Shown: positions 28,301-57,787 of the stretch, piece by piece
Position numbering within the stretch: the stretch's first letter is position 1
Layout: every line of letters begins with the position of its first letter
Origin: Promethearchaeota archaeon
Lineage (GTDB): Archaea; Asgardarchaeota; Lokiarchaeia; Sigyniarchaeales; SOKP01
Direction of reading: 5' to 3'
Assembly (NCBI GenBank): GCA_048940645.1
Contig: JBHLOI010000001.1
Location: forward strand, 103,636-167,635
DNA: 64,000 nucleotides
Made by a program: the position numbers and the translations under genes
Notes under the pieces: model-generated
The model's database searches: none
What the model saw: the letters and a program-made list of their open reading frames with translations, nothing else
What the model was told of the DNA's origin: nothing

Positions 28301-28855
28301 ATGAATGTAAAAAAAGCTATTAAAGAAAGAAGAGCATTTCGCTCTCTTGAATTAGTGAGAATTACAGACGAACTCATTTATGATTTAGCTGAAAAAGCTC
28401 AAGTTGCGCCTTCATGCGCCAATAAGCAACCCTGGAATTATATTTTTGTGCGAGAAAAAGAACAATTAAAAAAATTATTTAATACCTTGACAGATGGGAA
28501 TAAATGGGTTGAAAAAGCGTCAATGATTATTGCTGTATTTAGTAAGCCTGAGAATGATTGTATTATTGGGGAGCGTTTATATTATTTATTTGATACAGGG
28601 ATTGCTACCGCATTTATAATATTACGGGCGACTGAACTAGGATTGGTTGCTCATCCAATAGCAGGTTTCAATGAACCACAAGCTAAACAAATTCTTAAAA
28701 TTCCAGATGAAATGAGGTTAATCACACTTATAATTATTGGAAAGCATTCAAAAACAATCAATCCTGTTTTATCTGAAAAAATGAAACTGGGAGAAAAACA
28801 GAGACCACCCAGAAAAGAATTAGATAAATTTATTTTTATAAATAGTTATAAATGA
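28301..28855 (+). CDS. Nitroreductase family protein
   Basis: RRAFR, APSCANKQPW, D.GIA...L.ATELGL. Confidence 0.9.
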   Translation: MNVKKAIKERRAFRSLELVRITDELIYDLAEKAQVAPSCANKQPWNYIFVREKEQLKKLFNTLTDGNKWVEKASMIIAVFSKPENDCIIGERLYYLFDTGIATAFIILRATELGLVAHPIAGFNEPQAKQILKIPDEMRLITLIIIGKHSKTINPVLSEKMKLGEKQRPPRKELDKFIFINSYK

Positions 28856-29027
28856 GATTCAAAAAGTGCTTAAAGACCTTATATTCATTTTTTTATTAAA
28901 AGACAAACCATAGATTCTATTTTATAATTAAGCGATTATCAAAAGTTTATAGACTTAAGATAATTTTAACAAAAATTAATAGTTTATAACCGAGATTTTG
29001 ATAATTCATTCCAATATTAATAATTAT

Positions 29028-31115
29028 ATGATTATAAAAGAAAGAAAATATAATCATCTAGTTAATGAAAAGAGTCCTTATTTACTTCAACACGTTGAAA
29101 ATCCTGTAGATTGGTACCCATGGGGAGAAGGAGCTTTTAAAAAAGCAAACGACGAAAAAAAACCAATCTTTTTATCAATAGGATACTCCACTTGCCATTG
29201 GTGTCATGTTATGGCACATGAAAGCTTTGAAAGCAAAGAGGTCGCTGATTTAATGAATAAAACATTCATTTCAATCAAAGTTGACAGAGAGGAACGTCCA
29301 GATATAGATAAAATCTATATGACTGTATGCCAGATGATGACAGGTTCAGGGGGTTGGCCCTTAACAATTCTATTAACACCTGATAAGAAGCCCTTTTTTG
29401 CAGGTACATATTTTCCTAAAGAGTCAAAATTTGGAAAAATTGGCCTTATAGACTTAATTAAGAGAGTTAAAAATCTATGGATTAATAATAGGAATGAGTT
29501 ATTAGAATCAGCTGAAAAAATTACTGCTTCTCTTAAAAATTTAACTCAAGAATCTCCTGGAGATACTTTTAATAAGAGAATTTTAAAGAAAACATATAAC
29601 CAACTTTCCTCACAATTTGATTCTAAAAAAGGGGGATTTAGTGATAAACCTAAATTTCCATCACCCCATAACTTATTATATTTACTCCGTTATTGGAAAC
29701 GTACTGGGGAGCAACATGCATTAGAAATGGTTGAAAAAACTTTGCAAGAGATAAGAAAGGGTGGAATTTATGATCATATTGGATTTGGAATTCACAGATA
29801 TTCTACAGATAGAAATTGGCTTGTTCCGCATTTTGAAAAAATGCTATATGATCAAGCTTTAGTTGCTTATACTTATATTGAAGCTTTCCAAGCAACTAAG
29901 AAAGAGATTTATAAGAAAACAGCAGAAGAAATTTTCGAATATGTAATACGTGATATGACTTCTCCCGAAGGTGGTTTTTATTCTGCTGAAGATGCGGATA
30001 GTGAGGGAGAAGAAGGAAAATTTTATGTTTGGTCAAAAGCCGAAATTGAACAAGTTCTTGATAAAGAAGAAAGTGAACTAATTATAAGTACATATAATAT
30101 CACCGAAGCGGGGAACTATTTAGAAGAAGCATCTGGAATGAAAACAGGTCGAAATATTTTACACTTAAACCAAATCCAAGTAATAGAACAAGAAGAACAG
30201 TATCCTAAGCTTGTAGGTATTCGTCAAAAATTGTTTGATTATCGTGCTAAAAGAGTACGTCCACACAGGGATGATAAGATATTAACAGACTGGAATGGAT
30301 TGATGATAGCTGCTTTAGCTAAAGGGGCAAAATCTTTTTCAAAACCAAAATACCTCAAAATTGCACAAAATGCTACTAATTTTATAATTAAGAATTTAAA
30401 GAAAGAAGATGGAGAATTACTGCATCGCTATAGGGAGGGGAAAGCGGAAATTAAAGGTTTTCTTACAGATTATGCTTTTTTTATATGGGGTTTACTTGAA
30501 ATGCTTGAAGCAACATTTAATATTAAGTATTTAGAAATTGCCTTAGAATTAAATGAATATCTATTGAAGCATTTTTGGGATGATCATATAGGCGGCTTCT
30601 ACTTTACTTCTGAATATAATGAAGAACTCTTAACACGTCAAAAGGAAATATATGACGGAGCTATACCTTCAGGAAATTCGGTTTCTATGTTAAACTTATT
30701 GCGTCTAAGTTATATTACAGGAGATTATATTTTAGAAGAGAAAGCAGACATATTAAGCAGAGTATTTTCAGAAAAGTTAGAAGCATCTCCACTAGCATAT
30801 ACACAATTTATGGTTGCTGCAGATTTTGCTGTTGGTCCTACTTATTCATTAATCATAGCAGGAAAATCAAATTCAAAAGATACAATAAATATTTTAGAAG
30901 CAGTTGAAAATGAATACTTACCAAATAAAGTGCTTTTGCTTAGAAAAATGGAACAAGAAAATCCAGATATTGACAAATTTTCGAATTTCGTCCAATTTTT
31001 TGATGATAAAGACAACAAGGCTACTGCTTATGTTTGTATCAATAAAACTTGCAAACCTCCTAGCCATGAAATTGATAAGATTCTTGAATATCTAGACTCT
31101 AATTGGGAAAAGTAA
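29028..31115 (+). CDS. Thioredoxin-domain protein of the YyaL/SPATA20 family
   Basis: [47 protein letters not shown]. Confidence 0.93.
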
Positions 31116-42853: not shown

Positions 42854-44874
42854 TAAAGTTCACCCTCCATTATGATTGAAAATATTTGTTCCCCAGTAAA
42901 GCCAAAAATATCTATGGCAGAACATCTACAATTACCAGAACAAGCACCACAACCTTTACATAATGCTTGGTTGATAGATGCGATCCTACCGAATCGTCTA
43001 TCATCAATTAGTTCAATAGCACCATAAGCACAATTTTCAACACACATACCACATCCAATACAACGATCTGGACGAACGACTGCAAAGAATGGTTCTAACT
43101 CGACTTCTCCTTTAGCCATTAAAGTTGCTGCACTTGATGCAGCTCCTTTAGCTTGAGCAACAGAATCAGGAATATCCTTCGGACCCTGTGCTACTCCTGC
43201 TATGAAAATTCCTTCAGTCAAAGTATCTACAGGCCTTAATTTAGGATGGGCTTCCATAAAAAAACCATCAGCGGATCTTTGAACTCTAACTAAAGAGGCA
43301 ACCTCAGCTGCATCACTTCTAGACTCTAAACCACATGAAAGAATAAACATGTCGACTTCTAACTCCATCGGTTCTTGAAGTAATGTATCTTCAGCTCTGA
43401 TAATAATACTATGATCTTCACCTTCTCTTACTTCTGCAATTCTTCCTCTTATGTAATTAATTCCATAGTTCTTACCTGCTGATTCGTAAAATTCTTCGTA
43501 GCCCTTTCCAAAAGCTCGAACATCCATATAAAAAATGTATACTTCAGCATCAGGATGTTTTTCTTTATATTGTCTCGCTTGTTTTGTTGCGTACATGCAA
43601 CAAACTCTAGAACAATACTGATTACCCCCTTCTCTAAAATTTCTGCTTCCCACGCATTGGAGAAAGGCAATACTATGGGGTGCTTTTAGATCTGATGGTC
43701 TTGCGGGCTTTCCCTCTAAAGGGCCAGTAGAACTTAATAACCGTTCCATTTGAAGTCCATCAATAACGTTAGGATATCTACCATAACCATATTGTTTTAA
43801 TTGAGTAGGATCGTATAAATCCCAGCCAGTTGCAATAATAATAGTTCCTACCTTGACTTTCATATATTCGGGTTGCTCATCATACCTAATCGCATCTGGC
43901 TCACAAACATCCTCCCTAGCACAAATTCCACATTTAATACAATTATCCATATCTATAGTGTACTTTCCAGGAACTGCTTGAGGAAATGGAAGATATATTG
44001 CTTTCCTTGTAGCTAAACCAAGATCAAATTCATTACCAATTGTTATAGGACAATAATCTACACATACACCACAACCTGTGCATGCTTCCTGATCAACATA
44101 ATGAGGTTTTTTCATGATTGTTGCTTCAAAATTTCCAACATAGCCTGTTACTTCTACTACTTCTGAATAAGTTAATAACTCAATATTCTCGTTTCGTGCT
44201 ACATCTACCATCCTTGGAGTTAATATACAAGCACTACAGTCCATTGTAGGAAAAGTTTTATCTAATTGTGCCATATGACCCCCAATAGTAGGCGATTTTT
44301 CAACTAAGTAAACTTTATATCCTTCTGTGGCTAAATCTAAAGCAGAATTCATTCCTGCAATTCCACCACCAATAATTAAACAAGCAGGTTCAATACTGAC
44401 AGTTTTAACTTCTAACGGCTTTAATTCTCTAGCTTTTGCTACAGACATTTTTATAAGATCTTTTGCTGCTTCATATGCGCCTTCTGGGTCATTCATATGA
44501 ACCCATGTAGAGTGTTCTCTGATATTCGCTTGTTCAAATAAAAATTGATTCAATCCTGCTTCTTTACAAACTAATCTAAATGTAGGCTCATGCATTCTTG
44601 GAGAACATGCTGCCACAACAACCCTATTAATTAAGCCTGACTGGATATCTTCTTTAATTATATTTTGACCTGTATCAGAACAAAAAAATTTATATTCACG
44701 AGCAACAGATACATCAGGCAAGGTTTTAGCATATTCTATTAAATCTGGAACTGAAACTACACCACCTATATTCACACCACAATGACATACATATACACCA
44801 ACTTGAGGTTTTTCATTGCCTGTAACTATAATTTCTTTTTTTATTTTTTCCAATTCTTTTTTAGCTTCAGTCAT
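42853..44874 (-). CDS. hdrA: Heterodisulfide reductase subunit A
   Basis: GVYVCHCG.NI, AACSPRMHE, GGGIAG, LDKTFPTMDCSAC, QCVGSR...CSRVCC, EAHPKLRP. Confidence 0.95.
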   Translation of the reverse strand: MTEAKKELEKIKKEIIVTGNEKPQVGVYVCHCGVNIGGVVSVPDLIEYAKTLPDVSVAREYKFFCSDTGQNIIKEDIQSGLINRVVVAACSPRMHEPTFRLVCKEAGLNQFLFEQANIREHSTWVHMNDPEGAYEAAKDLIKMSVAKARELKPLEVKTVSIEPACLIIGGGIAGMNSALDLATEGYKVYLVEKSPTIGGHMAQLDKTFPTMDCSACILTPRMVDVARNENIELLTYSEVVEVTGYVGNFEATIMKKPHYVDQEACTGCGVCVDYCPITIGNEFDLGLATRKAIYLPFPQAVPGKYTIDMDNCIKCGICAREDVCEPDAIRYDEQPEYMKVKVGTIIIATGWDLYDPTQLKQYGYGRYPNVIDGLQMERLLSSTGPLEGKPARPSDLKAPHSIAFLQCVGSRNFREGGNQYCSRVCCMYATKQARQYKEKHPDAEVYIFYMDVRAFGKGYEEFYESAGKNYGINYIRGRIAEVREGEDHSIIIRAEDTLLQEPMELEVDMFILSCGLESRSDAAEVASLVRVQRSADGFFMEAHPKLRPVDTLTEGIFIAGVAQGPKDIPDSVAQAKGAASSAATLMAKGEVELEPFFAVVRPDRCIGCGMCVENCAYGAIELIDDRRFGRIASINQALCKGCGACSGNCRCSAIDIFGFTGEQIFSIIMEGEL

Positions 44875-47378: not shown

Positions 47379-47636
47379 ATGGATCTAAATTTTGACGATT
47401 ACAAAAATATAAAGAGAGAGTTCAAACAGAAGTTGAGATGGTTTGAAGAAGAATTTGAATTAATTTTCAAGAATAAAACACATAACTATAGTAAAGAAGA
47501 TATTAGGCTCGCGAATGAGATTTTGGACAAACTTTCTGAAACTATTAATGAATACCGAGATGAAAAGTTGTTATATCACTTAGTTTCAACATTAAATAAT
47601 ATTGAAAGAAACCATCCTGAATTCTTTCAAGATTAA
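47379..47636 (+). CDS. Small helical hypothetical protein
   Basis: GAGGAG SD before ATG; 85 aa, helical. Confidence 0.7.
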   Translation: MDLNFDDYKNIKREFKQKLRWFEEEFELIFKNKTHNYSKEDIRLANEILDKLSETINEYRDEKLLYHLVSTLNNIERNHPEFFQD

Positions 47637-47637
47637 G

Positions 47638-48030
47638 CTAGAAAAAGGGACCAAACTTTTTATAAAGGCGAATTAAATTTTCGCGATAAAATTGTATTTT
47701 CTCATCTTCTGGGTTTAATTGACTTGCTTTCTCGAGAGTTTTCTCTGCTAAACTTCCTTCATCTTTTTCTAAATAGGTTATTGTTAATAGACCCCACGCT
47801 TCAAGTAAGGATGAATTAAGTTCGGTAGCTGTGGAAAAGCATTTTATTGCATCATTAAAAGATCCTAATCGTCGTTTAGCTATACCTAATAAGAGCCAAG
47901 CTTGATAATTTGAAGGATTTTCATCTAAAAGTTTATTAAGATATCTAATAGCTTTAATATTATCCTTTTTAAGTAATAACTCATTAACGTAGTTAATGGG
48001 GTTTTCTAATTCAGAGGTGTTAAATTGCAT
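47638..48030 (-). CDS. TPR-repeat protein
   Basis: AW.LLG.A...LG...DA..CF..A.EL and AWG.L TPR patterns. Confidence 0.85.
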   Translation of the reverse strand: MQFNTSELENPINYVNELLLKKDNIKAIRYLNKLLDENPSNYQAWLLLGIAKRRLGSFNDAIKCFSTATELNSSLLEAWGLLTITYLEKDEGSLAEKTLEKASQLNPEDEKIQFYRENLIRLYKKFGPFF

Positions 48031-48466
48031 CTTAATAGAATAATATGATTCTTTTATATTAATTATCAATGGACCTTTATTTAATTTTAACTTTTTCGAA
48101 AGATAATTTCTAGATTTAATTCTTAAATAACATTTTATTTGAACATAAAGAAGTTCAATTGATTAAGAATAATAATGGTTATTACGAAAAAAGTATTTTC
48201 CTATTTTTCAAATTAAAATTATGAAAATAAGTTAGATTTTCGGGCTTTAAATTAACATCAAAAAGAAAGTCAAATTATTAACATGGTTTCATGAAAATTC
48301 TTTTTGAACAATAAATTTTAAATACTTACAAATAGTAATCTTAACTAGTTGAAATTACAATTCTTTACTATAGTTTTGTTTGAGTAAAAAAAGATTTCAA
48401 GCATCAAGCTTAAAAAGTTTAAAAATAAAATTGTTTGTTACTAATAATTAGGAAAAGAGGATAAAT

Positions 48467-49720
48467 TTGGTATCAAATAGTATAAGTCTCAAAAAAAAAG
48501 AAATCATTAATGTTGATGAATTTCTAGAAAAATATCAATATCTCTCAAACTTAGATCTTAAACATATATTAAATCTTGATTTTGAATTAGACTTCTACTA
48601 TAAGTCTGAAAAGATATGTCCCATAGTGAAAATAGCTAAACCAGAAGATTCGGAAGAAATAGCTAATATTTTTAAAGAAATATTCAGAGGAACGTACCCT
48701 TATAAATACCTGGAAGACAATAAATCAATAAAAGATATGATTATCCATCCTAATTATGAATGGTTTATATTTAAGTCACCAGCAAATGAAATTGTAGGAT
48801 GCTTTGGCGCAGATTTGGAATTAGAAGAAAAAAGAGCATTTCTTCATGGTTTTATGATTAAAAGGAAATACCAAAAAACAATAGATGTTTTTAAAGCTTT
48901 TATTGGTTGTATTACCTATTTATGGAAAAAATATAGGGAAAAGATATTTCTCTGGTATGGGGAAATGCGTACAAATGAAGCAATTTCTCAATTTTTTACC
49001 TCTTTAATTGGTATGAAACCAATTGCATTTTTACCGAATAAAGATATCTTTTGCAATAGAGTTGAATCTGATATACTTCATGCTATATATAGCAAAATTG
49101 TGCTAAATGATTATCGATTTAAAGAAAAACCTAAAATTATCAGACAGGTATTAAATTGTTATAATTATACAAATAAAAGGTTTCAACTTGGTCTTCCAAT
49201 AGTTGAAAATCCTAAAATTATCCTTGATCAAGAAAAAATAAAAATTATAAAGACATTGGTCAGTAAAAAAGCAGAAGAAGATAAATTTGGATTTCAAAAA
49301 ATTAAATATTCTATTAAAAATACAAATTCTTATTTCCAATTCATTCTTAACCCTTATAGTAAAAACATCGAGAAAGTAGAATATTCTGTTTCTAACTTAG
49401 AAGAATTAATTGTTTTCTTAGAAAGATTAATGGAATTAGCTAAAAAACAAAATCTTAATTATATTGAATGTTTTGTTAGTTCTTATAAACCAAAAGATCA
49501 AAAAGTTTTTCTTAATGCAGGTTTTAATCCAAGAGGTTATGTGCCTTGTTGGAGATACAATAAAAGTATAAACTTTTTCGAAGATTATATTGTATTTAAC
49601 TTCTTTAAAGGAAAAATTGATCAAAACATGAAAATTATTCCTGAAACAGAACAGTTTCTTAATGATATCAACATTTTAGAAGATAAATTTAAAGGAGAAT
49701 CAGAGATCATCAGATCTTAA
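48467..49720 (+). CDS. Tandem-GNAT N-acyltransferase (N-terminal half AblB-like)
   Basis: AKPEDSEEIANIF...F.GTYPY, RKYQ motif A, second GNAT end (FLNAGFNPRGYVP). Confidence 0.65.
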   Translation: MVSNSISLKKKEIINVDEFLEKYQYLSNLDLKHILNLDFELDFYYKSEKICPIVKIAKPEDSEEIANIFKEIFRGTYPYKYLEDNKSIKDMIIHPNYEWFIFKSPANEIVGCFGADLELEEKRAFLHGFMIKRKYQKTIDVFKAFIGCITYLWKKYREKIFLWYGEMRTNEAISQFFTSLIGMKPIAFLPNKDIFCNRVESDILHAIYSKIVLNDYRFKEKPKIIRQVLNCYNYTNKRFQLGLPIVENPKIILDQEKIKIIKTLVSKKAEEDKFGFQKIKYSIKNTNSYFQFILNPYSKNIEKVEYSVSNLEELIVFLERLMELAKKQNLNYIECFVSSYKPKDQKVFLNAGFNPRGYVPCWRYNKSINFFEDYIVFNFFKGKIDQNMKIIPETEQFLNDINILEDKFKGESEIIRS

Positions 49721-49811
49721 TATTTTTATACATTTAATCTATTCTTATTCAATTATTTTTTAATTTTAAAACAAATTAAGTAGTTATTAAAACAAATGAA
49801 ATTGATTAATT

Positions 49812-50666
49812 TTGTTTGAAGATAAAAAACTAAAAGAATGGTCAAGTTCCTATTGGAATCAAATTAGTAGAAATCTTGGTCTAATAAAGATTCCAGAACA
49901 AGAAAAATTAAGAAAAACACCTATTGTAGTTTTTGGAGTAGGAGGTCTTGGTGGACCATTAGTGGAACAACTTATACGAGTTGGGTGCGAAAATCTTAAA
50001 ATCTGTGACAATGAAAAATATGAAGAATCAAATCTTAATCGCCAAATTTGCACTAGAGAGGACCTAGGTTATTATAAAGTAGACCATATTGAAAAATTTG
50101 GAATGAAAATAAATCATAATGCAAAAATTCAAAAATATTATATAGTAAACGAAAAAAATATTAATGATATTTTAAAAAATGCTAGAGTTGCAAGCTTGAC
50201 TTTAGATGACCCAATTATATCAATACTAATTTCTAGAGCATGTAAAAATAATAAAGTTCCAATGATTGAAGCTTGGGCAATTCCATATATATGTACATGG
50301 TGGTTTAACCAAGAAAGTATAGATTATGAAGCTTGTTATGGACTCAAAACAAAAGATTTGACAATAAAACAAATAATAAACTCAAAGGAAGTATCATCAA
50401 CTATTAAAAAAGCTTTATTGACTAAATTATTACAATTCCCTGGTATTAAAGAAATTTATAATAGAGAAGAAGGAACTGTAGAAAATATGCTCTCTGGAAA
50501 AATTACATCCCGATCCTTATCTCCAATAGTAAGAATTAATGCATCATTTCTTGCATTTGATATAATTTATGCTGGGATTTTAAAAATAAAACAAAAAGTT
50601 TTGGCACCTAATATTAATGGTTATGATTATTTAAGAATGAAACCAATTACATTTACATTTAAATAA
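49812..50666 (+). CDS. ThiF/E1-like adenylyltransferase lacking Zn-binding CxxC pairs
   Basis: SRNLGLI...EQEKL, GVGGLGG, D.E.YEESNLNRQ. Confidence 0.88.
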   Translation: MFEDKKLKEWSSSYWNQISRNLGLIKIPEQEKLRKTPIVVFGVGGLGGPLVEQLIRVGCENLKICDNEKYEESNLNRQICTREDLGYYKVDHIEKFGMKINHNAKIQKYYIVNEKNINDILKNARVASLTLDDPIISILISRACKNNKVPMIEAWAIPYICTWWFNQESIDYEACYGLKTKDLTIKQIINSKEVSSTIKKALLTKLLQFPGIKEIYNREEGTVENMLSGKITSRSLSPIVRINASFLAFDIIYAGILKIKQKVLAPNINGYDYLRMKPITFTFK

Positions 50667-50742
50667 TAAAAATTAATAGTTTTTTTCAAAGAATATTAAA
50701 TTATAATTAAAGAAATAGTAGAAAAATCGAACTTATTAAATA

Positions 50743-51804
50743 ATGAGAGTTGAAATTATTAATAACCCAAAAGAAATTTTAGACTTTTTACAATTGGGCA
50801 TTAATCTTCCAATTTTGCCAAAATTTCATAAATATATCCTAAAAAGTTTTGAGATCTTTAAACCAAATGCAATTCTTATTAAAAAAGAAGAAAGAAAAGA
50901 TTATAAATTATCTAAATCGCCTATAAATAATGTTTTAGGAGTTTGTTTAGTGTTTCGGCATGAGGATATCTTGTTTTTTGGTTTTTTTGGTGCTTATAAT
51001 GATGAACCAAGTTTAATAGAATTGTTAATAAATAATTTATTGAAATATGCTCGAATTAATAATTATAAATATATAAGGGGACCTATAAACGTTCCAGCGA
51101 TTATTTATGGGTACGGATTTTCGTTGGAAACAGGATTTAAAGAGATAGGAGTAAATATTAATAATTTATTTATTGCCTGTCCAAGCAGTCATCCAATCTA
51201 TAATCAAATATTTTTGAAAATGGGGTTCTATGAGAAGTATAAGGAAGATTTTTATTATATGCCAGTAATCAAATTAAATCCATTAAAGTTGAAATATGAT
51301 TATAGCGATTATGAAGTACTTTTTCCTGGAAAAGAGAATATACGGAGTTATATAAATGATATTTTAAAATTACATATTAATAATATGCCAAAGGAATCAT
51401 TAATTACACCAAATTCACCTCAATATGCTAATATTATCATTGATTTTATTTATGATTTTGGAAAACCATGGATGATTTGGTTAGTAAGGTATAGACCGAC
51501 ACAAAAGATTATTGGGACAGCTCATATTGTTCCAAATGTATTCGGCGAAAGAGATAGTAAAGGTAGATATAAAACTGCTTCATTTCAACATGTTGTTGTT
51601 GATAAGGAGCATCAAAGAAGAGGATTAGTGTTATTTCTCTATGGAATGGGATCTTTAAAGGCAACAGATAAAAAGTCTGGAAACAATTTAAAATATGGTT
51701 TGGGAATCGTTGCTTCTAATAATAAGCCCTCTATTGCGTGGGTAACTAAATTGGGAGGGCAACTATTTAAGCGTAGTATTATTTTAGAGTTTAGATTGAA
51801 ATAA
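50743..51804 (+). CDS. YghO/bCerS-like tandem-GNAT N-acyltransferase
   Basis: FFGFFG...D, IRGPIN, VVVDKEHQRRGL (motif A), N..S.....KLGG. Confidence 0.65.
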   Translation: MRVEIINNPKEILDFLQLGINLPILPKFHKYILKSFEIFKPNAILIKKEERKDYKLSKSPINNVLGVCLVFRHEDILFFGFFGAYNDEPSLIELLINNLLKYARINNYKYIRGPINVPAIIYGYGFSLETGFKEIGVNINNLFIACPSSHPIYNQIFLKMGFYEKYKEDFYYMPVIKLNPLKLKYDYSDYEVLFPGKENIRSYINDILKLHINNMPKESLITPNSPQYANIIIDFIYDFGKPWMIWLVRYRPTQKIIGTAHIVPNVFGERDSKGRYKTASFQHVVVDKEHQRRGLVLFLYGMGSLKATDKKSGNNLKYGLGIVASNNKPSIAWVTKLGGQLFKRSIILEFRLK

Positions 51805-51975
51805 TTCCCCAGTACTTTAAGAATTTAGTAAATTATTATAAATTTTAAAATAAGCTCTTAATGGTTAAATAATTTAAATTATATTTGTACAAAAAAAGAT
51901 ATATTTTAGTATAATTACTTTTAATTATATTTTTAATAGAAGAAGAAACGATTAATTAAAGATGATTTTCTAACT

Positions 51976-52695
51976 ATGGTTTTATATCAAATTGAATGGG
52001 CAAGACTCATTCCAATTTTTATTGCTCAACCTCTTTCAGCTGTTTTATTTATTTTTCTAGCCATTAAAACCTTAATAAGAAAAAAGGATCAAGTTTCATT
52101 GAGTTTAGTTGCATTTTACATAATTTCAAGTCTGAGCTTGATCATTAACCTTATTTATATAATATTAACAACATTTATGGATTTTCAAACATTGTTGTAC
52201 TTTCTTTATTTCTTGACAGCTTACCTTTTGATTTTTTCTTCTTTTTTTCTCATAAGTTTTCTAAATTTACTTCTTAATGTTGAGAGTAAATTTAACTCAA
52301 GAAAAAATTTAACGATATTGATAATTTTTGGTATTTCTTGCTTATTGGTTTTGCTCTATCCAGGAGGAATAACATTAGATCCTTCTAATAATTGGAGACC
52401 TATATATAGTTTCGAATTCCTATTAGTCATGTATACATATTTTACTTCAATTGTTTTTATTCCAACGATAGTATTTTCTGTAAAGTTGTATAGAAGATTT
52501 GTAGCAAAAGACTTAAAAAAAAAATTTAGAATGCTCATAATTGGTATCATTGAAATGGTAGCTATTCTGTATGGAACTGTACTTTTTAATACTACTATGA
52601 ACCCAATAATACGATCTATCTGGGGAATACTATCATTAATAATCATAATTAGTTCTGGTATATTAATTTACGTTGGAATTGGGCTTAATCTTTAA
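51976..52695 (+). CDS. Stand-alone 7-TM membrane protein (HisKA_7TM sensor-like)
   Basis: Seven hydrophobic segments, W.P.Y extracellular loop, basic loop before TM6. Confidence 0.65.
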   Translation: MVLYQIEWARLIPIFIAQPLSAVLFIFLAIKTLIRKKDQVSLSLVAFYIISSLSLIINLIYIILTTFMDFQTLLYFLYFLTAYLLIFSSFFLISFLNLLLNVESKFNSRKNLTILIIFGISCLLVLLYPGGITLDPSNNWRPIYSFEFLLVMYTYFTSIVFIPTIVFSVKLYRRFVAKDLKKKFRMLIIGIIEMVAILYGTVLFNTTMNPIIRSIWGILSLIIIISSGILIYVGIGLNL

Positions 52696-52795
52696 ATTTT
52701 ATGATCGAAATATTTTAATTAATTTAATATTAGATGAGAGGTTCATATTTTATTGATAAAATTTACATGATTATTAATATAGGAGAAATTGAAAA

Positions 52796-54385
52796 ATGAA
52801 TAATAATAGACTATTAATGGTTCAATCTTTTCGATCTGAAATACCATATACATATATGTACAAGGGACTCGAGAAATTTCGAAAAATATTAATTAAAGAT
52901 AATCCTGAATTGGAAAAATGGGCTAAAAAAGAATTTTTCCAAATAAAACCTATTTGGCCAGAAAAGCCACACTCTAATGCTTACCAATATGGCACAAATG
53001 TTTCTGGTACTTTTATTGCAAAAAATATTGATACACCCACAACAGTTATGGGGGGAAATTGTACTCCAAACAAAATTTTGAAAGAACTAAAAAAAGCAAA
53101 AAGACAAGGGTTTCCTTATACTCATGTAGGTTTTAGTGTTTTTATAGATTCATATAATAACTTTATGAAATCTGCAGAAGTAGTTAAGGATTTTAATAAA
53201 AAAATTATAACAATTGCAGGAAATGTAGGAGCTTTATTTGAAAAAACTAAAAATTATGTTGATTATGTATGTACTAATGATGGAGTAGCTTTCTTTAGAA
53301 AATTATTAGGAGAAGATATTCACAAACCTTACAATTATTGCTTAATACCATCTAAATTTTTTTTGGACATTTTCGAAATGAGATTAAAATCTGATTTGGT
53401 ATTTCTAACTACAAAATTAGGATGTCCGTATCAATGTGATTTTTGCGGAACATTTCAAATATTTAAAGGCAAATGTACATCACCCTTTATTTCACCTCAA
53501 GATCTTTATCAAGCATTGGTTGATTATCATAATCAACTGAAGAAAGATATAACTATAATGTTTGCAGAACCTACTGCTGTATTTCCGCATAAATGGTGGT
53601 ATGAATTATTTGATTTGTTTCGTGAAGTAGATGCTGATTTTCCTATTATTGCATCAACAACACCATCTTCATTATATAACTTCAATTTTGATAAAATTAG
53701 TAAATCCAGCTTAAGATTTCAAGTAATAAATTTAGGGATCGAAAGTTTTAATAAAAATTATACAAAAAATCCTTCAATTAATGACACAAAACCACTTATA
53801 AAAAAATTATCTGATTATGGTATTGGAACTTTAGCTACATATATTATTGGATTTGACTATCATAATCGTGAAAATATTTGGCAAGAAATTAACCGACTTA
53901 TTGATTTAGAGGCTTCAACATATTCAGTATTAAATCTTAAACCTATACCTAAAACACCAATATGGAATACTTTAAAGAGTCAAGATAGATTATTGGATAT
54001 ACCTTATGATCTATATTATTTACAGGGTTTTCAATCATACTTACATCCTAATTTTAAGCCTGGATTCGAAGATATGCTTCCACTTCTATGCCAAATACAT
54101 GCTCATATTGAAAAAGAGACAAGTTCTATTACATCTAGTTATATTAAATTATTTGAAACTTTGAGTAAAACACGTTCGAATAAAAAATTTGAAAAAAATC
54201 TAAATAAATATAAATATTTCTCTAAAGCATTATATGACTCATGGGAGAGTAATTTAATCCCTTCAGAAAAACAAAAAGAACAATATAATTCTTTTATAGC
54301 GGAAGTCAATAAAATTCCTCTTAATCTTAGATTAATTAAGAAATCTAAACTTTTTAGAAAAGTTATTCAATTATTGATCCATTGA
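52796..54385 (+). CDS. B12-binding-domain radical SAM enzyme
   Basis: HVGFS...TIAGNVGA B12-like domain; GCPYQCDFC; GIES; YIIGFD; P.P.TP.W. Confidence 0.85.
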   Translation: MNNNRLLMVQSFRSEIPYTYMYKGLEKFRKILIKDNPELEKWAKKEFFQIKPIWPEKPHSNAYQYGTNVSGTFIAKNIDTPTTVMGGNCTPNKILKELKKAKRQGFPYTHVGFSVFIDSYNNFMKSAEVVKDFNKKIITIAGNVGALFEKTKNYVDYVCTNDGVAFFRKLLGEDIHKPYNYCLIPSKFFLDIFEMRLKSDLVFLTTKLGCPYQCDFCGTFQIFKGKCTSPFISPQDLYQALVDYHNQLKKDITIMFAEPTAVFPHKWWYELFDLFREVDADFPIIASTTPSSLYNFNFDKISKSSLRFQVINLGIESFNKNYTKNPSINDTKPLIKKLSDYGIGTLATYIIGFDYHNRENIWQEINRLIDLEASTYSVLNLKPIPKTPIWNTLKSQDRLLDIPYDLYYLQGFQSYLHPNFKPGFEDMLPLLCQIHAHIEKETSSITSSYIKLFETLSKTRSNKKFEKNLNKYKYFSKALYDSWESNLIPSEKQKEQYNSFIAEVNKIPLNLRLIKKSKLFRKVIQLLIH

Positions 54386-54402
54386 AATTCAAATAACTTC
54401 TG

Positions 54403-57198
54403 TTAAATTATCGGTAATGAGAAATAAAAGGTACTTCCTTTATTTCTGCCTTCTGATTCTACCCATATTTTACCACCGTGTAATTCCACGATTTCTTTCG
54501 AAATGTATAGCCCTAAACCTGTTCCTTCGATTCCTACATCCCATCCCTGCCCATACCGTTCAATCTTACCAAATTGTGTAAACAATTTCTTCTTCTCGCT
54601 TTCTGTTATACCAATTCCATTATCACTTATAGAAATTATATAAAAACCATCTTTTTCATCAGTTTGAATTTCAATATTCCCTCCTATTGGAGTATATTTT
54701 ATAGCATTTATCAATAAATTAGAAAGAACCTCATAAATTCTCTCTTTATCAAAAATTGTTTCTAAATTTTCATCAATATTCACTTTAATTTTCTGTTTTC
54801 TCAATTTTGCTATACCTTTTAACTGAGCTACCCAATCTTTTATAAGAGCTGATAGATCTTCTTTTGAACGATTTATTTTTAATAATCCTTGATCTAGTTG
54901 GGAGCTCTCTACTATTGCATTAACATAATTTTCAAGACGTTTACTTCCTTCCTTAATTTCCTCTAAAATTGAAACTACTTCCGGATCTAGTTTACTTTTA
55001 TGAAGGTTTAACAAGAGTTCTGTAAATCCTTTAATAGAAATTAGAGGAGTCTTTAACTCATGAGAAGTCCTTGATAATAAATTTTGTTTGAATAAAACTT
55101 GTTCTTCAAGGTGCTGTAGGGCTTCCCATCTTCGCTTTTCAATTTCAATTGCATCGCTAATTAAGAATAACACTAATTTATCTTGATTAGTAAGAATAGG
55201 ATTGTTTTGATATAAAACACAGAGAGCATCATCAAATGATTCTCCCGATTTAATTAATTTTCCATAACTAGCTTTAATTTTATTTTTTTTAATAATCTCA
55301 TCAGTTTTAGCATATTCAGTTTCATCTATACTATAGTAAGTTTGAGGGAAATCATGTTTTTCCTTAAATAAATCAAGAATAAAAGAATTGCCTTTAAAAT
55401 CTCCTAAATTATATAAATATGTATCTCCTAAAGATGAAATAACTCTATATTTAATTCCTTCCGTATTTTGAATTTTCCTAAGATACAAAGCCAATTTGCC
55501 ATTGAGTAGTTTATTACTTGTTTTAAGTAATGAAATTATATTCTGTTGAATATCAGTGGAGAAACTAAGAAAATCTATATTTAGTTCATAAATTAATTTT
55601 TCATACATTTTTTTTTCTGATACATCTTCTAACCACATCCGGAAACTGATTAAATTGCCTTTTTCATCATATTGATTAGTTCTATTACCTTGTAACCATT
55701 TTATTTTTTTATCCTTAGTCTTAATTCTGAATTCTAAATCCTTATCCTCAGAGGATCTAAATAATTTCTTCACATCATCCGGATGGATTATTTTATCCAA
55801 CAAATCTTGATTTACAGTTTCAATTGTCTCATATCCTATGATCTCTAATAATTTGGGATTAATATAGGAAATATTTCGGTTTATTAAATCAATTTCTAAA
55901 ATTCCTACCGTAGAGGTTTCTAATAGATCACGATATTTTGCTTCTGTTTCTTTCTTATCTGTTATATCTTGAGCAATTGCTTGGAAATAAGTTTTTTCCC
56001 CAAATTTAATCAAGGTTAATTCTGCTTTTACCCAAGCCTTCTTTCCATCTTTTCTATAGACTTGAAGATCAGTTGGTTCAATTTCTTCTCCTTTGTATAA
56101 TTTAAGAAATTTTTTATTCATAATAGAAAAGATTTCAGGAGGATAGAGTGGAAGTTCTTCATAGGATCTTCCAATTATCTCCTCTTTTGTATATCCAAAT
56201 AGCTTTTCGGTAGTAGAATTAATATCAATGATTATTCCCTTTATATTAAAAACTAAGATTGAATAGGGTGAACTTTCAATTAGATGACGATATTTTTCTT
56301 CTGATTCTTTCAGTTTATGCTCTGCTAGAATTCTTTCCGTCACATCTTCAGATGTAACTAAAATTCCAACAACCATTCCTTCGGAATCATATAAAGGAAT
56401 TCTATTTATATCTAACCAAACTTCTTTTCCATCCTTTAAAATCCAAGAATTAACAACATGAAATTCAGGTTTTTCGGATTTTATAATCTCTTTTTCGCGA
56501 GTTTGAAGTTCTCTTATCTCTTTCGGTGTCCAAGGAAGATCCTCATCTCTTTTATTAATTATATTCTCAGGATTATCAATTCCAACCAACTTAGCATAAT
56601 TATCGTTACATCCTTGATAATTTAGATCTGTATCTTTCCAAAAAATATATTGAGGGATGTTCTCCATTACCATTTCCAGCATTTCATAGGAACTCTGGAG
56701 AGCTTCTTCATACTTTTTTGGATTAAAAAGCTTCCAAAATCTTATCTCTGGAATAGTTTCTGTGATCTTTTTGAATCGTTCCTCATTAATTCGTAATTTA
56801 TCTTCTAATGTTTTTCTTCTTGAGATATCCTTCAAAATGACAAAATATTTTTTAGAATTGTCTTCTAACTTAAACTTTTTTGACTTTATTTCGACCCATA
56901 CTGGCATTCCTTTTGAGTTTTTAACTTTAATCTCTTGAATTCGATCAGGAAATTCAACCCCTTTTTTTAAGACTCTTATAGCTTTTTTAATATCCTCTGG
57001 AGGGATAATACTGAGAAATGGTTCTCCTATTAAGTCAACAGAAGAGTATCCTAATTTATATAAAAAAGTGCAGTTATTAACATACTCTAATCTTAGTTCA
57101 TCTGATGTCTCGACAATGAATATCAAATCATCTACCGTATCCATAAAAAGCTGTAGTTGCGTTTCAAGATTTTCAATGTCTTTCTCATCAATGATCAT
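54403..57198 (-). CDS. Multi-PAS cytoplasmic sensor histidine kinase
   Basis: Four PAS/PAC repeats, H-box SHELKTPL, NLLINAIKYT, DNGIG, GTGLGL. Confidence 0.93.
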   Translation of the reverse strand: MIIDEKDIENLETQLQLFMDTVDDLIFIVETSDELRLEYVNNCTFLYKLGYSSVDLIGEPFLSIIPPEDIKKAIRVLKKGVEFPDRIQEIKVKNSKGMPVWVEIKSKKFKLEDNSKKYFVILKDISRRKTLEDKLRINEERFKKITETIPEIRFWKLFNPKKYEEALQSSYEMLEMVMENIPQYIFWKDTDLNYQGCNDNYAKLVGIDNPENIINKRDEDLPWTPKEIRELQTREKEIIKSEKPEFHVVNSWILKDGKEVWLDINRIPLYDSEGMVVGILVTSEDVTERILAEHKLKESEEKYRHLIESSPYSILVFNIKGIIIDINSTTEKLFGYTKEEIIGRSYEELPLYPPEIFSIMNKKFLKLYKGEEIEPTDLQVYRKDGKKAWVKAELTLIKFGEKTYFQAIAQDITDKKETEAKYRDLLETSTVGILEIDLINRNISYINPKLLEIIGYETIETVNQDLLDKIIHPDDVKKLFRSSEDKDLEFRIKTKDKKIKWLQGNRTNQYDEKGNLISFRMWLEDVSEKKMYEKLIYELNIDFLSFSTDIQQNIISLLKTSNKLLNGKLALYLRKIQNTEGIKYRVISSLGDTYLYNLGDFKGNSFILDLFKEKHDFPQTYYSIDETEYAKTDEIIKKNKIKASYGKLIKSGESFDDALCVLYQNNPILTNQDKLVLFLISDAIEIEKRRWEALQHLEEQVLFKQNLLSRTSHELKTPLISIKGFTELLLNLHKSKLDPEVVSILEEIKEGSKRLENYVNAIVESSQLDQGLLKINRSKEDLSALIKDWVAQLKGIAKLRKQKIKVNIDENLETIFDKERIYEVLSNLLINAIKYTPIGGNIEIQTDEKDGFYIISISDNGIGITESEKKKLFTQFGKIERYGQGWDVGIEGTGLGLYISKEIVELHGGKIWVESEGRNKGSTFYFSLPII

Positions 57199-57358: not shown

Positions 57359-57787
57359 ATGAAACTATTAAGTGATGATTTTCAACACAATGAGTTAATG
57401 GATAAAAAATTTTCTTATCGTGGAGGGAATGTTTCTCCGCATTTAAAATGGGAAGATATTCCAAGTGGAACAAAAAGTATTGCAATTTCGTGTAATGACC
57501 CCGATGCCCCTGTGGGGGACTGGATACATTGGTTTGTACATAGTATTCCCGCCAATACTACTGAAATTCCTCAAGGAGGCCCCATTCCTGGAACTGAAGT
57601 AAAAAATGATTATGGAAAAGTAGGATATGGTGGACCAGCTCCACCTAGCGGCACTCATAGATACTTCTTTAGAATATATGCTCTTGATATGGAAAAGTTA
57701 GAAGGTGTTACCAAAAATAATTTCATGAGTAAAGTTAAAGAGCATACACTAGAATCAGCCGAAATTATTGGCTTATATAAAGCTTAA
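57359..57787 (+). CDS. YbhB/YbcL (PEBP family) protein
   Basis: NVSPHL.W, DPDAP, HW, YGGPAPP.G.HRY.F..YALD. Confidence 0.93.
   Translation: MKLLSDDFQHNELMDKKFSYRGGNVSPHLKWEDIPSGTKSIAISCNDPDAPVGDWIHWFVHSIPANTTEIPQGGPIPGTEVKNDYGKVGYGGPAPPSGTHRYFFRIYALDMEKLEGVTKNNFMSKVKEHTLESAEIIGLYKA

Follow-up and report, generated by a model that had tools for sequence, protein, structure and literature searches.

What do five consecutive, co-oriented genes in the genome of a Promethearchaeota archaeon (assembly GCA_048940645.1, contig JBHLOI010000001.1) produce, and do they form a functional unit? The genes lie in a stretch of 64,000 nucleotides (positions 103,636 to 167,635 of the contig; hereafter the window, numbered from its first letter) and encode two GNAT-fold proteins (GNAT1 and GNAT2), a ThiF-family adenylase, a seven-helix membrane protein (TM7) and a radical S-adenosylmethionine (SAM) enzyme, as follows.

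48467..49720, + strand, GNAT1, tandem-GNAT protein, 417 aa
49812..50666, + strand, ThiF-family adenylase, 284 aa
50743..51804, + strand, GNAT2, tandem-GNAT protein, 353 aa
51976..52695, + strand, TM7, stand-alone seven-helix membrane protein, 239 aa
52796..54385, + strand, class-B-like (cobalamin) radical SAM enzyme, 529 aa

The five genes are a real, constrained and co-inherited module that is specific to the lineage. The pair of tandem GNATs is the invariant core of this cassette, whole genes of which are exchanged between species. With regard to function we favor, at a probability of roughly 0.4, a modular, membrane-associated N-acyl-amide pathway specific to the lineage. A preliminary description of this DNA had listed five co-oriented genes, and the open reading frames (ORFs) recomputed over the window match that list exactly, with gaps of 76-171 nt between the genes. 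Its gene labels stand for ThiF and the radical SAM enzyme (Pfam), the GNAT fold (AlphaFold), the B12 character (orthologue profile) and the seven membrane segments, while the label of the membrane protein as a receptor is tentative. No publication describing this cassette was found in literature searches.

The neighborhoods of about 70 loci in related genomes were mapped by our own ORF calls on fetched stretches. GNAT1, ThiF, GNAT2 and TM7 occur together in 22 loci, in which the order of the last three is shuffled, and GNAT2 was found in 31 of the first 39 loci inspected. The grouping is far beyond chance, because the genes recur together in dozens of genomes, and the cluster proposed earlier thus survives the comparison of synteny across related genomes. 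Relatives of GNAT1 are present in 58 of the 68 genomes of the family and in 6 of 7 of the sister family, and in only 2 of about 225 genomes from 28 other families of the phylum; relatives of the cassette appear almost confined to one order of Promethearchaeota. Database searches returned 288 relatives of GNAT1, 185 of ThiF and 265 of GNAT2, and all those listed with a source name belong to metagenome-assembled genomes of Promethearchaeota. The best 150 GNAT2 profile relatives listed are unnamed or carry generic names (hypothetical protein, GNAT family N-acetyltransferase), the few named after an organism being Asgard; in the atlas, look-alike bacterial GNAT clusters of similar length lie near GNAT2 at 0.95. 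Purifying selection acts across the cassette genes (omega 0.11-0.29, with 0.18-0.23 for GNAT1), compared with 0.08-0.12 for the histidine kinase located downstream. A scan for bacterial promoters and terminators gave 62 sites against 55 expected, and is uninformative in AT-rich archaeal DNA. A membrane slot of the cassette is occupied by TM7, by a DUF998 fusion, by a protein of 4-5 transmembrane (TM) segments, by a surface-anchored protein or by a beta-propeller; a major facilitator superfamily (MFS) exporter adjoins three cassettes and an M20 aminoacylase-type peptidase adjoins one.

A closer inspection of the site at the DNA level revealed how this diversity is organized. The features that frame and subdivide the cassette are these.

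47379..48069, conserved left flank, with an 85-aa helical protein (+ strand) and a TPR protein (- strand; Pfam TPR)
50677..54405, replaceable segment, in which DNA similarity to the closest relatives breaks and restarts at gene borders (blastn)
54403..57198, - strand, soluble PAS x4-HisKA-HATPase kinase (Pfam)

The left flank also contains Hdr/Flx-like iron-sulfur genes, and the right flank is formed by the PAS kinase, a phosphatidylethanolamine-binding-protein (PEBP) family member and an aldehyde:ferredoxin oxidoreductase. The flanks at this site are 76-99% identical among genus-mates; 12-13 of these, as well as other genera, have the pair on the left next to the cassette (76-99% identity for the 85-aa protein, 52-92% for the TPR protein). 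The cassette genes, enclosed by flanks conserved at 85-95% identity, are deeply divergent alleles (33-45% identity between alleles), with a pattern that differs from gene to gene; GNAT2 alone ranges from 33 to 87% identity to its homologues at the same chromosomal site. In blastn alignments with the window, genome G013 is 88% identical up to position 50676, 10 nt past ThiF, and nothing further aligns until 54406, genome G019 is 84% identical up to 51835, at the end of GNAT2, and resumes at 54413, and genomes G022 and G030 are 85% identical up to 49648, at the end of GNAT1. In genome G018 the GNAT2-TM7 segment (79%) is more similar to the window than its own flanks (71-78%), and the synonymous divergence (dS) of GNAT2 and TM7 (0.77-0.89) is about half of that of GNAT1, ThiF and the kinase (1.37-1.49). 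Species thus trade whole genes, with breakpoints at the gene borders, at one fixed site of the chromosome between conserved flanks. GNAT1 is inherited roughly vertically. Since tailoring and membrane genes are swapped between species, the product of the cassette probably differs between species.

The AlphaFold models of GNAT1 and GNAT2, calculated on homologue alignments, each reached a predicted local distance difference test (pLDDT) score of 90 and each show a tandem GNAT. The two GNAT domains of GNAT1 comprise approximately residues 50-210 and 255-380. Its fold matches are VipF, RimI, N-acetylglutamate synthase and tandem GNATs (Z 12-14), among them 7q3a and 2wpx, which align over 230-250 residues (Z 12), and include aminoglycoside acetyltransferases and a glucosamine N-acetyltransferase region. 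The FemX/MprF type of aminoacyl-tRNA transferase is not among the Foldseek or VIA re-aligned matches of GNAT1, which are acyl-CoA GNATs. The coenzyme A (CoA) loop of GNAT1 is atypical (YQKxxD) and its activity is uncertain. The C-terminal domain of GNAT2, on the other hand, bears a canonical CoA motif A (HQRRGL), and its Foldseek matches over both domains are 2wpw from the clavulanate pathway (E 6e-14), the glucosamine N-acetyltransferase 5kf1, MshD and Eis, together with the N-myristoyl-histidine enzyme 9emp. A link of GNAT2 to bCerS/YghO could not be shown by word-index and exhaustive profile searches, and no match to N-acyl amino acid synthase models was found at E < 0.1; it is GNAT-fold proteins that adjoin ThiF. 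The two GNATs are naturally fused into a single protein of 748 aa in some metagenomes (e.g. P0361), and in a sister genus GNAT1 is fused to a DUF998 membrane domain. On contig C104 of the same genome there is a second GNAT2 (28336-29379) and a second GNAT1 (43519-44712), 14 kb apart and without ThiF, in what looks like a dispersed or decayed set.

ThiF matches PF00899 with 103 bits over residues 19-277 of 284. Residues R20, G42xGGxG47, D66, N76-R77 and K89 are invariant among 38 homologues and D132 is at least 90% conserved, so that every adenylase catalytic residue is retained (the Arg finger, GxGxxG, the ribose Asp, NxxRQ, the Lys and the catalytic Asp). The sequence contains no CxxC pair, and no ubiquitin/ThiS-like or beta-grasp carrier gene lies next to it, in agreement with the preliminary description on both points. 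Its scores on NCBIfam equivalog models are all far below the cut-offs (given in brackets): ThiF 69-74 (275), UbaA 58 (450), MoeB 55 (266) and TcdA, NF011696, 26 (304), the last of which other paralogues of the genome match with 52-63 bits. It therefore clusters neither with TcdA nor with UbaA. The Rv1355c (TrzS) model NF005901, which served as a proxy for membership of the OxzB/TyzB/TrzS cluster, gives 14 bits against a cut-off of 476, and the MoeB-like paralogue of the genome reaches 54. Elsewhere the genome encodes separate paralogues, some MoeB/UbaA-like (234-301 bits) and two, of greater length, Ube1-like E1 proteins (about 140 bits); on the basis of these and of the low equivalog scores, activation of a ubiquitin-like or sulfur carrier and a TcdA function were rejected. 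The closest solved relative is 9egb/9egc, an unnamed stand-alone ThiF of 264 aa (E 1.5e-13), and the literature search found no publication on 9egb, 9egc or 9egd; PaaA, MccB and Uba4 match at about 1e-7. There is no N-terminal peptide-clamp or recognition element (RRE) of the kind that binds precursors of ribosomally synthesized and post-translationally modified peptides (RiPPs), the ThiF domain starting at about residue 19 and MccB aligning from its residue 103. Taken at the level of sequence, the protein appears to be a carrier-less, zinc-less adenylase outside the TcdA, UbaA/MoeB, RRE-bearing RiPP and OxzB types.

ThiF is a frequent but replaceable partner of the GNAT pair. Its relatives occur in 27 of 36 genus-mates, and three single-contig genomes of the sister family contain no ThiF match at E <= 1e-20. 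A PP-loop enzyme of 380-390 aa holds the ThiF slot, between the two GNATs, in a sister genus. It aligns end to end with the WbuX model TIGR03573 (107-115 bits against a cut-off of 203), and all 11 members of the PP-loop family that we examined carry the SGGKDS motif. Two loci hold ThiF and the PP-loop enzyme together, and no WbuX-like gene was found in the genome of the window. The WbuX family is annotated as converting an N-acetyl into an acetamidino group. Elsewhere in the genome of the window, on contig C60 (5000-24000, locus L089), a paralogue of the radical SAM enzyme (29% identity) and a ThiF-like gene of 293 aa stand about 6 kb apart and may represent a different ThiF/radical SAM pairing.

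The radical SAM enzyme matches PF04055 with 44 bits, and its CxxxCxxC motif (C210, C214 and C217) is invariant among orthologues. The Pfam B12-binding model, with a cut-off of 32 bits, scores 14.5 in the window copy and 27 in one orthologue. The latter score and a profile built on 12 orthologues, which matches the cobalamin domain of TokK (E 4.5e-8), support an enzyme of the cobalamin-dependent (class B) type. The PhpK, BchE and HpnJ models score 21-29 bits, with no subfamily assignment. Although the gene is present in only three of the first 39 loci, a family-wide search gave 13 loci with context, spanning several genera, and in 10 of them its orthologue (at least 35% identity) adjoins GNAT1, GNAT2, TM7 or the PP-loop gene. 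The enzyme is therefore an optional but recurrent accessory, and its earlier inclusion in the cluster proves correct for a minority of loci. One cassette contains a second, different B12 radical SAM enzyme of 558 aa (L085:10913-12586), for which the best NCBIfam matches are to a radical SAM enzyme of ladderane-type lipid biosynthesis, at 81 bits, and to a RiPP C-methyltransferase, at 78 bits.

In the pathway that we favor, GNAT1 and GNAT2 would act jointly to transfer one or two acyl or acetyl groups onto an amine-bearing substrate, GNAT2 supplying the canonical acyl-CoA site next to the divergent site of GNAT1. ThiF would then spend ATP to adenylate the carboxylate of the product, leading to cyclization or to joining with a nucleophile, as the chemistry of its family suggests. 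In other cassettes the WbuX-like PP-loop enzyme would replace or join ThiF, activating the acyl-amide carbonyl. The B12 radical SAM enzyme would be an optional tailoring step, most likely a methylation, and TM7, the DUF998 fusion or another membrane protein may bring this chemistry to the membrane as anchor, exporter, acceptor or receptor. The swapping of alleles would alter the product between species. The preferred substrate is an amino acid or other small amine, which would yield an N-acyl-amide lipid or small molecule; the foremost alternative is an amino sugar or the head group of a lipid. An acyl-amide product, already suggested in the preliminary description, is judged the most economical reading of the co-occurrence of the genes, the GNAT fusions, the invariant ThiF residues and the small-molecule tandem GNATs among the fold matches of GNAT2; the SGGKDS motif and WbuX match of the PP-loop enzyme, the MFS and M20 neighbors, purifying selection and the whole-gene swaps are also counted in its favor.

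Several observations weigh against this reading. Both GNATs score only 17-18 bits on the GNAT Pfam model, under its cut-off of 20.7, and GNAT1, without the usual R/Q-x-x-G-x-G/A loop, may not be catalytic. ThiF is missing from the cassettes L068, L072, L078 and L085, so the adenylation step is not universal, and its WbuX-like substitute favors acetamido sugars over amino acids. No gene of the cassette supplies an obvious substrate, and no fatty-acid or acyl-CoA gene is linked to it, the length of the acyl chain not being fixed by the context. Finally, the defining features of the nearest known pathway, that of OxzAB, Tyz and Trz, fail here.

This pathway deserves a closer comparison. An N-acyltransferase and a ThiF-type cyclase together produce acyl-oxazolones (PMC12596934, PMC12856293), in pathways whose defining traits are an amino-acid N-acyltransferase and a ThiF cyclase that is either fused to a flavin oxidase or located next to one (PMC12596934; PMC12856293). 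According to a review, ThiF chemistry is known to act on a small molecule in oxazolone synthesis only (PMC12596934). OxzA/OxzB of Pseudoalteromonas rubra and TyzACB and TrzA/TrzS of Mycobacterium tuberculosis are the sole precedent for pairing an acyltransferase with ThiF. The cassette differs from them in that no flavin oxidase or nitroreductase domain or gene is found in the five genes or the flanks, in the low Rv1355c score of its ThiF, in its core of two tandem GNATs, rather than ThiF or PF13444-type synthases, in the additional 7TM protein and B12 radical SAM enzyme, and in being archaeal and hypervariable. Membership of the OxzAB type of oxazolone synthases, with no oxidase and a ThiF of the wrong clade, was rejected, and the analogy made in the preliminary description is kept at the level of mechanism. 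A second comparison is with MshD, 2wpw, 5kf1 and Eis: a tandem-GNAT fold is predicted for both of our proteins, GNAT2 superimposes on them over both domains (TM score 0.6-0.7), and MshC and MshD likewise pair an ATP-dependent activating enzyme with a tandem GNAT. The sequence identity to these small-molecule enzymes is, however, only 8-15% and the pathway context is not shared.

The WbuX likeness brings in a different explanation, in which the cassette tailors the cell envelope or its glycans. Amino sugars or the head groups of lipids would be N-acetylated by the GNATs, given an amidine or amide by the WbuX-like enzyme or by ThiF, and methylated by the radical SAM enzyme. Allele swapping would diversify the surface of the cell, for instance as a protection from viruses, in the manner of O-antigen or flagellin-glycan islands. 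Like the loci of WbuX, PseA and WbpG, the cassettes of the sister genus place an SGGKDS PP-loop enzyme, here between GNATs, within a mosaic bounded by conserved flanks, and mosaic replacement of this kind is typical of surface-structure loci. The PP-loop enzyme is a full-length relative of TIGR03573, named 'N-acetyl sugar amidotransferase', the glucosamine N-acetyltransferases, MshD and aminoglycoside acetyltransferases among the GNAT folds fit such substrates, and the variable slot is filled by membrane or surface proteins (TM7, DUF998, f22 and the surface-anchored f47). However, no glycosyltransferase, sugar-nucleotide enzyme, flippase or oligosaccharyltransferase was found in or beside the roughly 70 loci inspected, the best WbuX score (115) stays under the family cut-off, and the cassette of the window carries ThiF in place of a WbuX-like gene. 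We consider envelope tailoring possible but rather doubtful.

The relatives of ThiF recall antimicrobial synthesis as well. The enzyme could form a toxic adenylate or acyl compound, akin to microcin C or of another kind, with a GNAT and the membrane protein providing self-protection and export and the turnover of alleles reflecting an arms race. Microcin C has a layout of ThiF, GNAT and exporter (MccB, MccE and MccC; PMC8323819), the nearer solved relatives of ThiF include MccB and PaaA, an exporter adjoins some cassettes and the locus is hypervariable. The cassette shares the ThiF adenylation domain with the RiPP enzymes MccB, PaaA, GrcB and IndF, and GrcB cooperates with radical SAM enzymes (PMC12596934). 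It departs from them in the missing N-terminal RRE and peptide clamp, in a core formed by the GNAT pair and in the precursor, no peptide of this kind being found: the gap upstream of GNAT1 contains only three ORFs of 20-23 aa, a count that does not cover the gaps between the cluster genes. A RiPP cluster was rejected, as neither an RRE nor a precursor peptide was found. Moreover, no toxin match was obtained, and some cassettes dispense with ThiF while the GNAT pair is invariant. An antimicrobial with its immunity is very unlikely. Anti-phage defense was rejected as well, PADLOC yielding only generic matches to E1 domains.

The substrate could also be a macromolecule, with acylation or adenylation of a protein (such as the co-encoded membrane protein) or of tRNA, by analogy with N-terminal acetyl- and myristoyl-transferases, E1 enzymes, TcdA, TilS and Elp3. 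In this direction point the matches of the GNAT1 fold to RimI, Naa10 and Naa60, a match of the GNAT2 profile to N-myristoyltransferase (E 7e-6) and the conserved C-termini of TM7 and f27. The ThiF, PP-loop and radical SAM+GNAT families each include members that modify tRNA. The N-myristoyltransferase match, however, spans only the generic CoA motif and this enzyme is missing from the fold matches of GNAT2; the TcdA score is low, there is no ubiquitin-like partner, and hypervariable, multi-copy, swappable cassettes of a single order are unlike housekeeping modification enzymes. We regard modification of a macromolecule as a long shot.

The membrane protein deserves separate consideration, because the preliminary description combined synthesis with sensing by a 7TM receptor, next to a convergent PAS histidine kinase. 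The kinase gene converges on the radical SAM gene 17 nt downstream. TM7 has seven hydrophobic segments with a predicted N-out/C-in topology (positive-inside rule). The window copy has no Pfam match; 7TMR-DISM_7TM (PF07695) weakly matches 4 of 21 homologues (E of at least 0.009), and one neighboring atlas cluster was automatically named after the HisKA 7TM region (PF16927), a lead from the atlas only. The family is present in 75 of 81 family genomes, with 1-11 copies each, and among the approximately 150 matches listed from these 81 genomes (open frames of 194-282 aa) no fusion to a kinase or output domain was found. The protein ends directly after helix 7, without a cytoplasmic domain, and its most conserved parts are one outer and one inner loop. 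Tandem pairs of the family are frequent away from GNAT cassettes (e.g. G026:C43:24666-26229 and G033:C62:8981-10536). Kinship of TM7 with the DUF998 domain fused to GNAT1 was rejected (hhalign probability 0.2%). At this site, genera g1, g18, g20 and g22 have the PAS kinase next to the cassette, and the kinase is absent beside cassettes at other sites (L025, L027, L028, L033, L040 and the type-B loci). It is a syntenic neighbor only, and its membership in the module is not supported.

These data bear on an alternative in which a diffusible acyl-amide, its structure set by GNAT2, is recognized by TM7 as cognate receptor and signaled to the soluble PAS kinase, the swapped GNAT2-TM7 alleles being 'pherotypes' as in agr or comQXP. 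The locus resembles agrBDCA and comQXP in its variable enzyme and membrane segment, conserved flanks, adjoining histidine kinase and alleles discordant with the species tree. It also offers a topology like that of G-protein-coupled receptors (GPCRs), the weak affinities to 7TMR-DISM and HisKA_7TM, and a multi-PAS kinase beside this site in four genera. Among all gene pairs, GNAT2 and TM7 show the strongest co-variation of identities (Pearson 0.70; both are at least 70% identical in 7 pairs, against 3 discordant ones) and, as genome G018 illustrates, the two genes have moved together between lineages. This co-variation is nevertheless explicable by linkage alone, because the genes are usually physically adjacent, and genome G019 contains a discordant pair (GNAT2 87%, TM7 41%). 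In contrast to agrBDCA and comQXP, kinase and membrane protein are two distinct proteins here, the latter lacking an output domain, and cassettes elsewhere manage without the kinase, leaving a likeness of pattern only. Unrelated membrane proteins replace TM7 in some cassettes, its numerous copies often stand in tandem away from them, and its conservation peaks in two loops and not in a variable pocket. A signal with its receptor is thus distinctly unlikely; of the combined proposal the co-conserved synthesis module stands, and sensing is a weak minority hypothesis. In its boldest form, to which we give little credence, Loki-type Asgard archaea would use the cassette as a polymorphic system of chemical communication or self-recognition. 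If so, a membrane-active acyl-amide signal would owe its structure to the swappable GNAT2, alone or together with the radical SAM enzyme, and the co-transferred, GPCR-shaped TM7 would be the cognate receptor feeding the adjacent PAS kinase. The archaeal lineage nearest to eukaryotes would then have its own equivalent of the pherotype loci of bacteria.

The N-acyl-amide pathway has consequences of its own. We know of no such N-acyl chemistry from the archaea closest to eukaryotes, and to our knowledge almost nothing has been established about specialized metabolism, envelope variation or chemical signaling in these organisms. Most genomes of one Lokiarchaeial family contain the cassette, and many of them have multiple copies. 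It has folds without a characterized close relative and is among the fastest-changing loci while standing beside highly conserved core genes; this wide presence and fast change imply a product that is ecologically important and differs between species. The pathway would represent a second, independent context, besides that of the oxazolones, for carrier-less ThiF chemistry on non-peptide substrates, one in which ThiF alternates with a PP-loop amidotransferase-like enzyme. As the kit comprises only four or five genes, the product should be directly findable by heterologous expression and mass spectrometry.

A second conserved site was seen beside an unknown protein of 1260 aa, where a paralogous GNAT1/ThiF/GNAT2 set has its own variable slot. 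The block that borders this site (L032:7762-16053; also L062-L066, L079, L081 and L086) encodes proteins of about 1260, 284 and 250 aa without a Pfam match and continues with a helix-hairpin-helix protein of about 620 aa; its variable slot holds the paralogous set or other genes. Between GNAT1 and GNAT2 the occupant varies by species (an M20 peptidase, a beta-propeller, a surface-anchored or a 4-5-TM protein), at the following coordinates.

L044:6405-7739, slot at the second site
L046:6297-7649, slot at the second site
L045:6434-7372, slot at the second site
L032:4795-5370, slot at the second site

A small soluble protein of 105-129 aa with a conserved C-terminal ...IYEIKVEGD...LIKGK...NFPF, without a Pfam match, lies inside cassettes at other sites (L025:7710-8045 and L067:11052-11435; also L070, L071 and L076) and, in other genera, between the 85-aa gene and the kinase; no homologue of it was noticed in the window. 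The PEBP/YbhB family gene of the right flank is located at 57359-57787, between the PAS kinase and the aldehyde:ferredoxin oxidoreductase; the ORF o142, considered as a homologue of f27, proved to be a PEBP protein.

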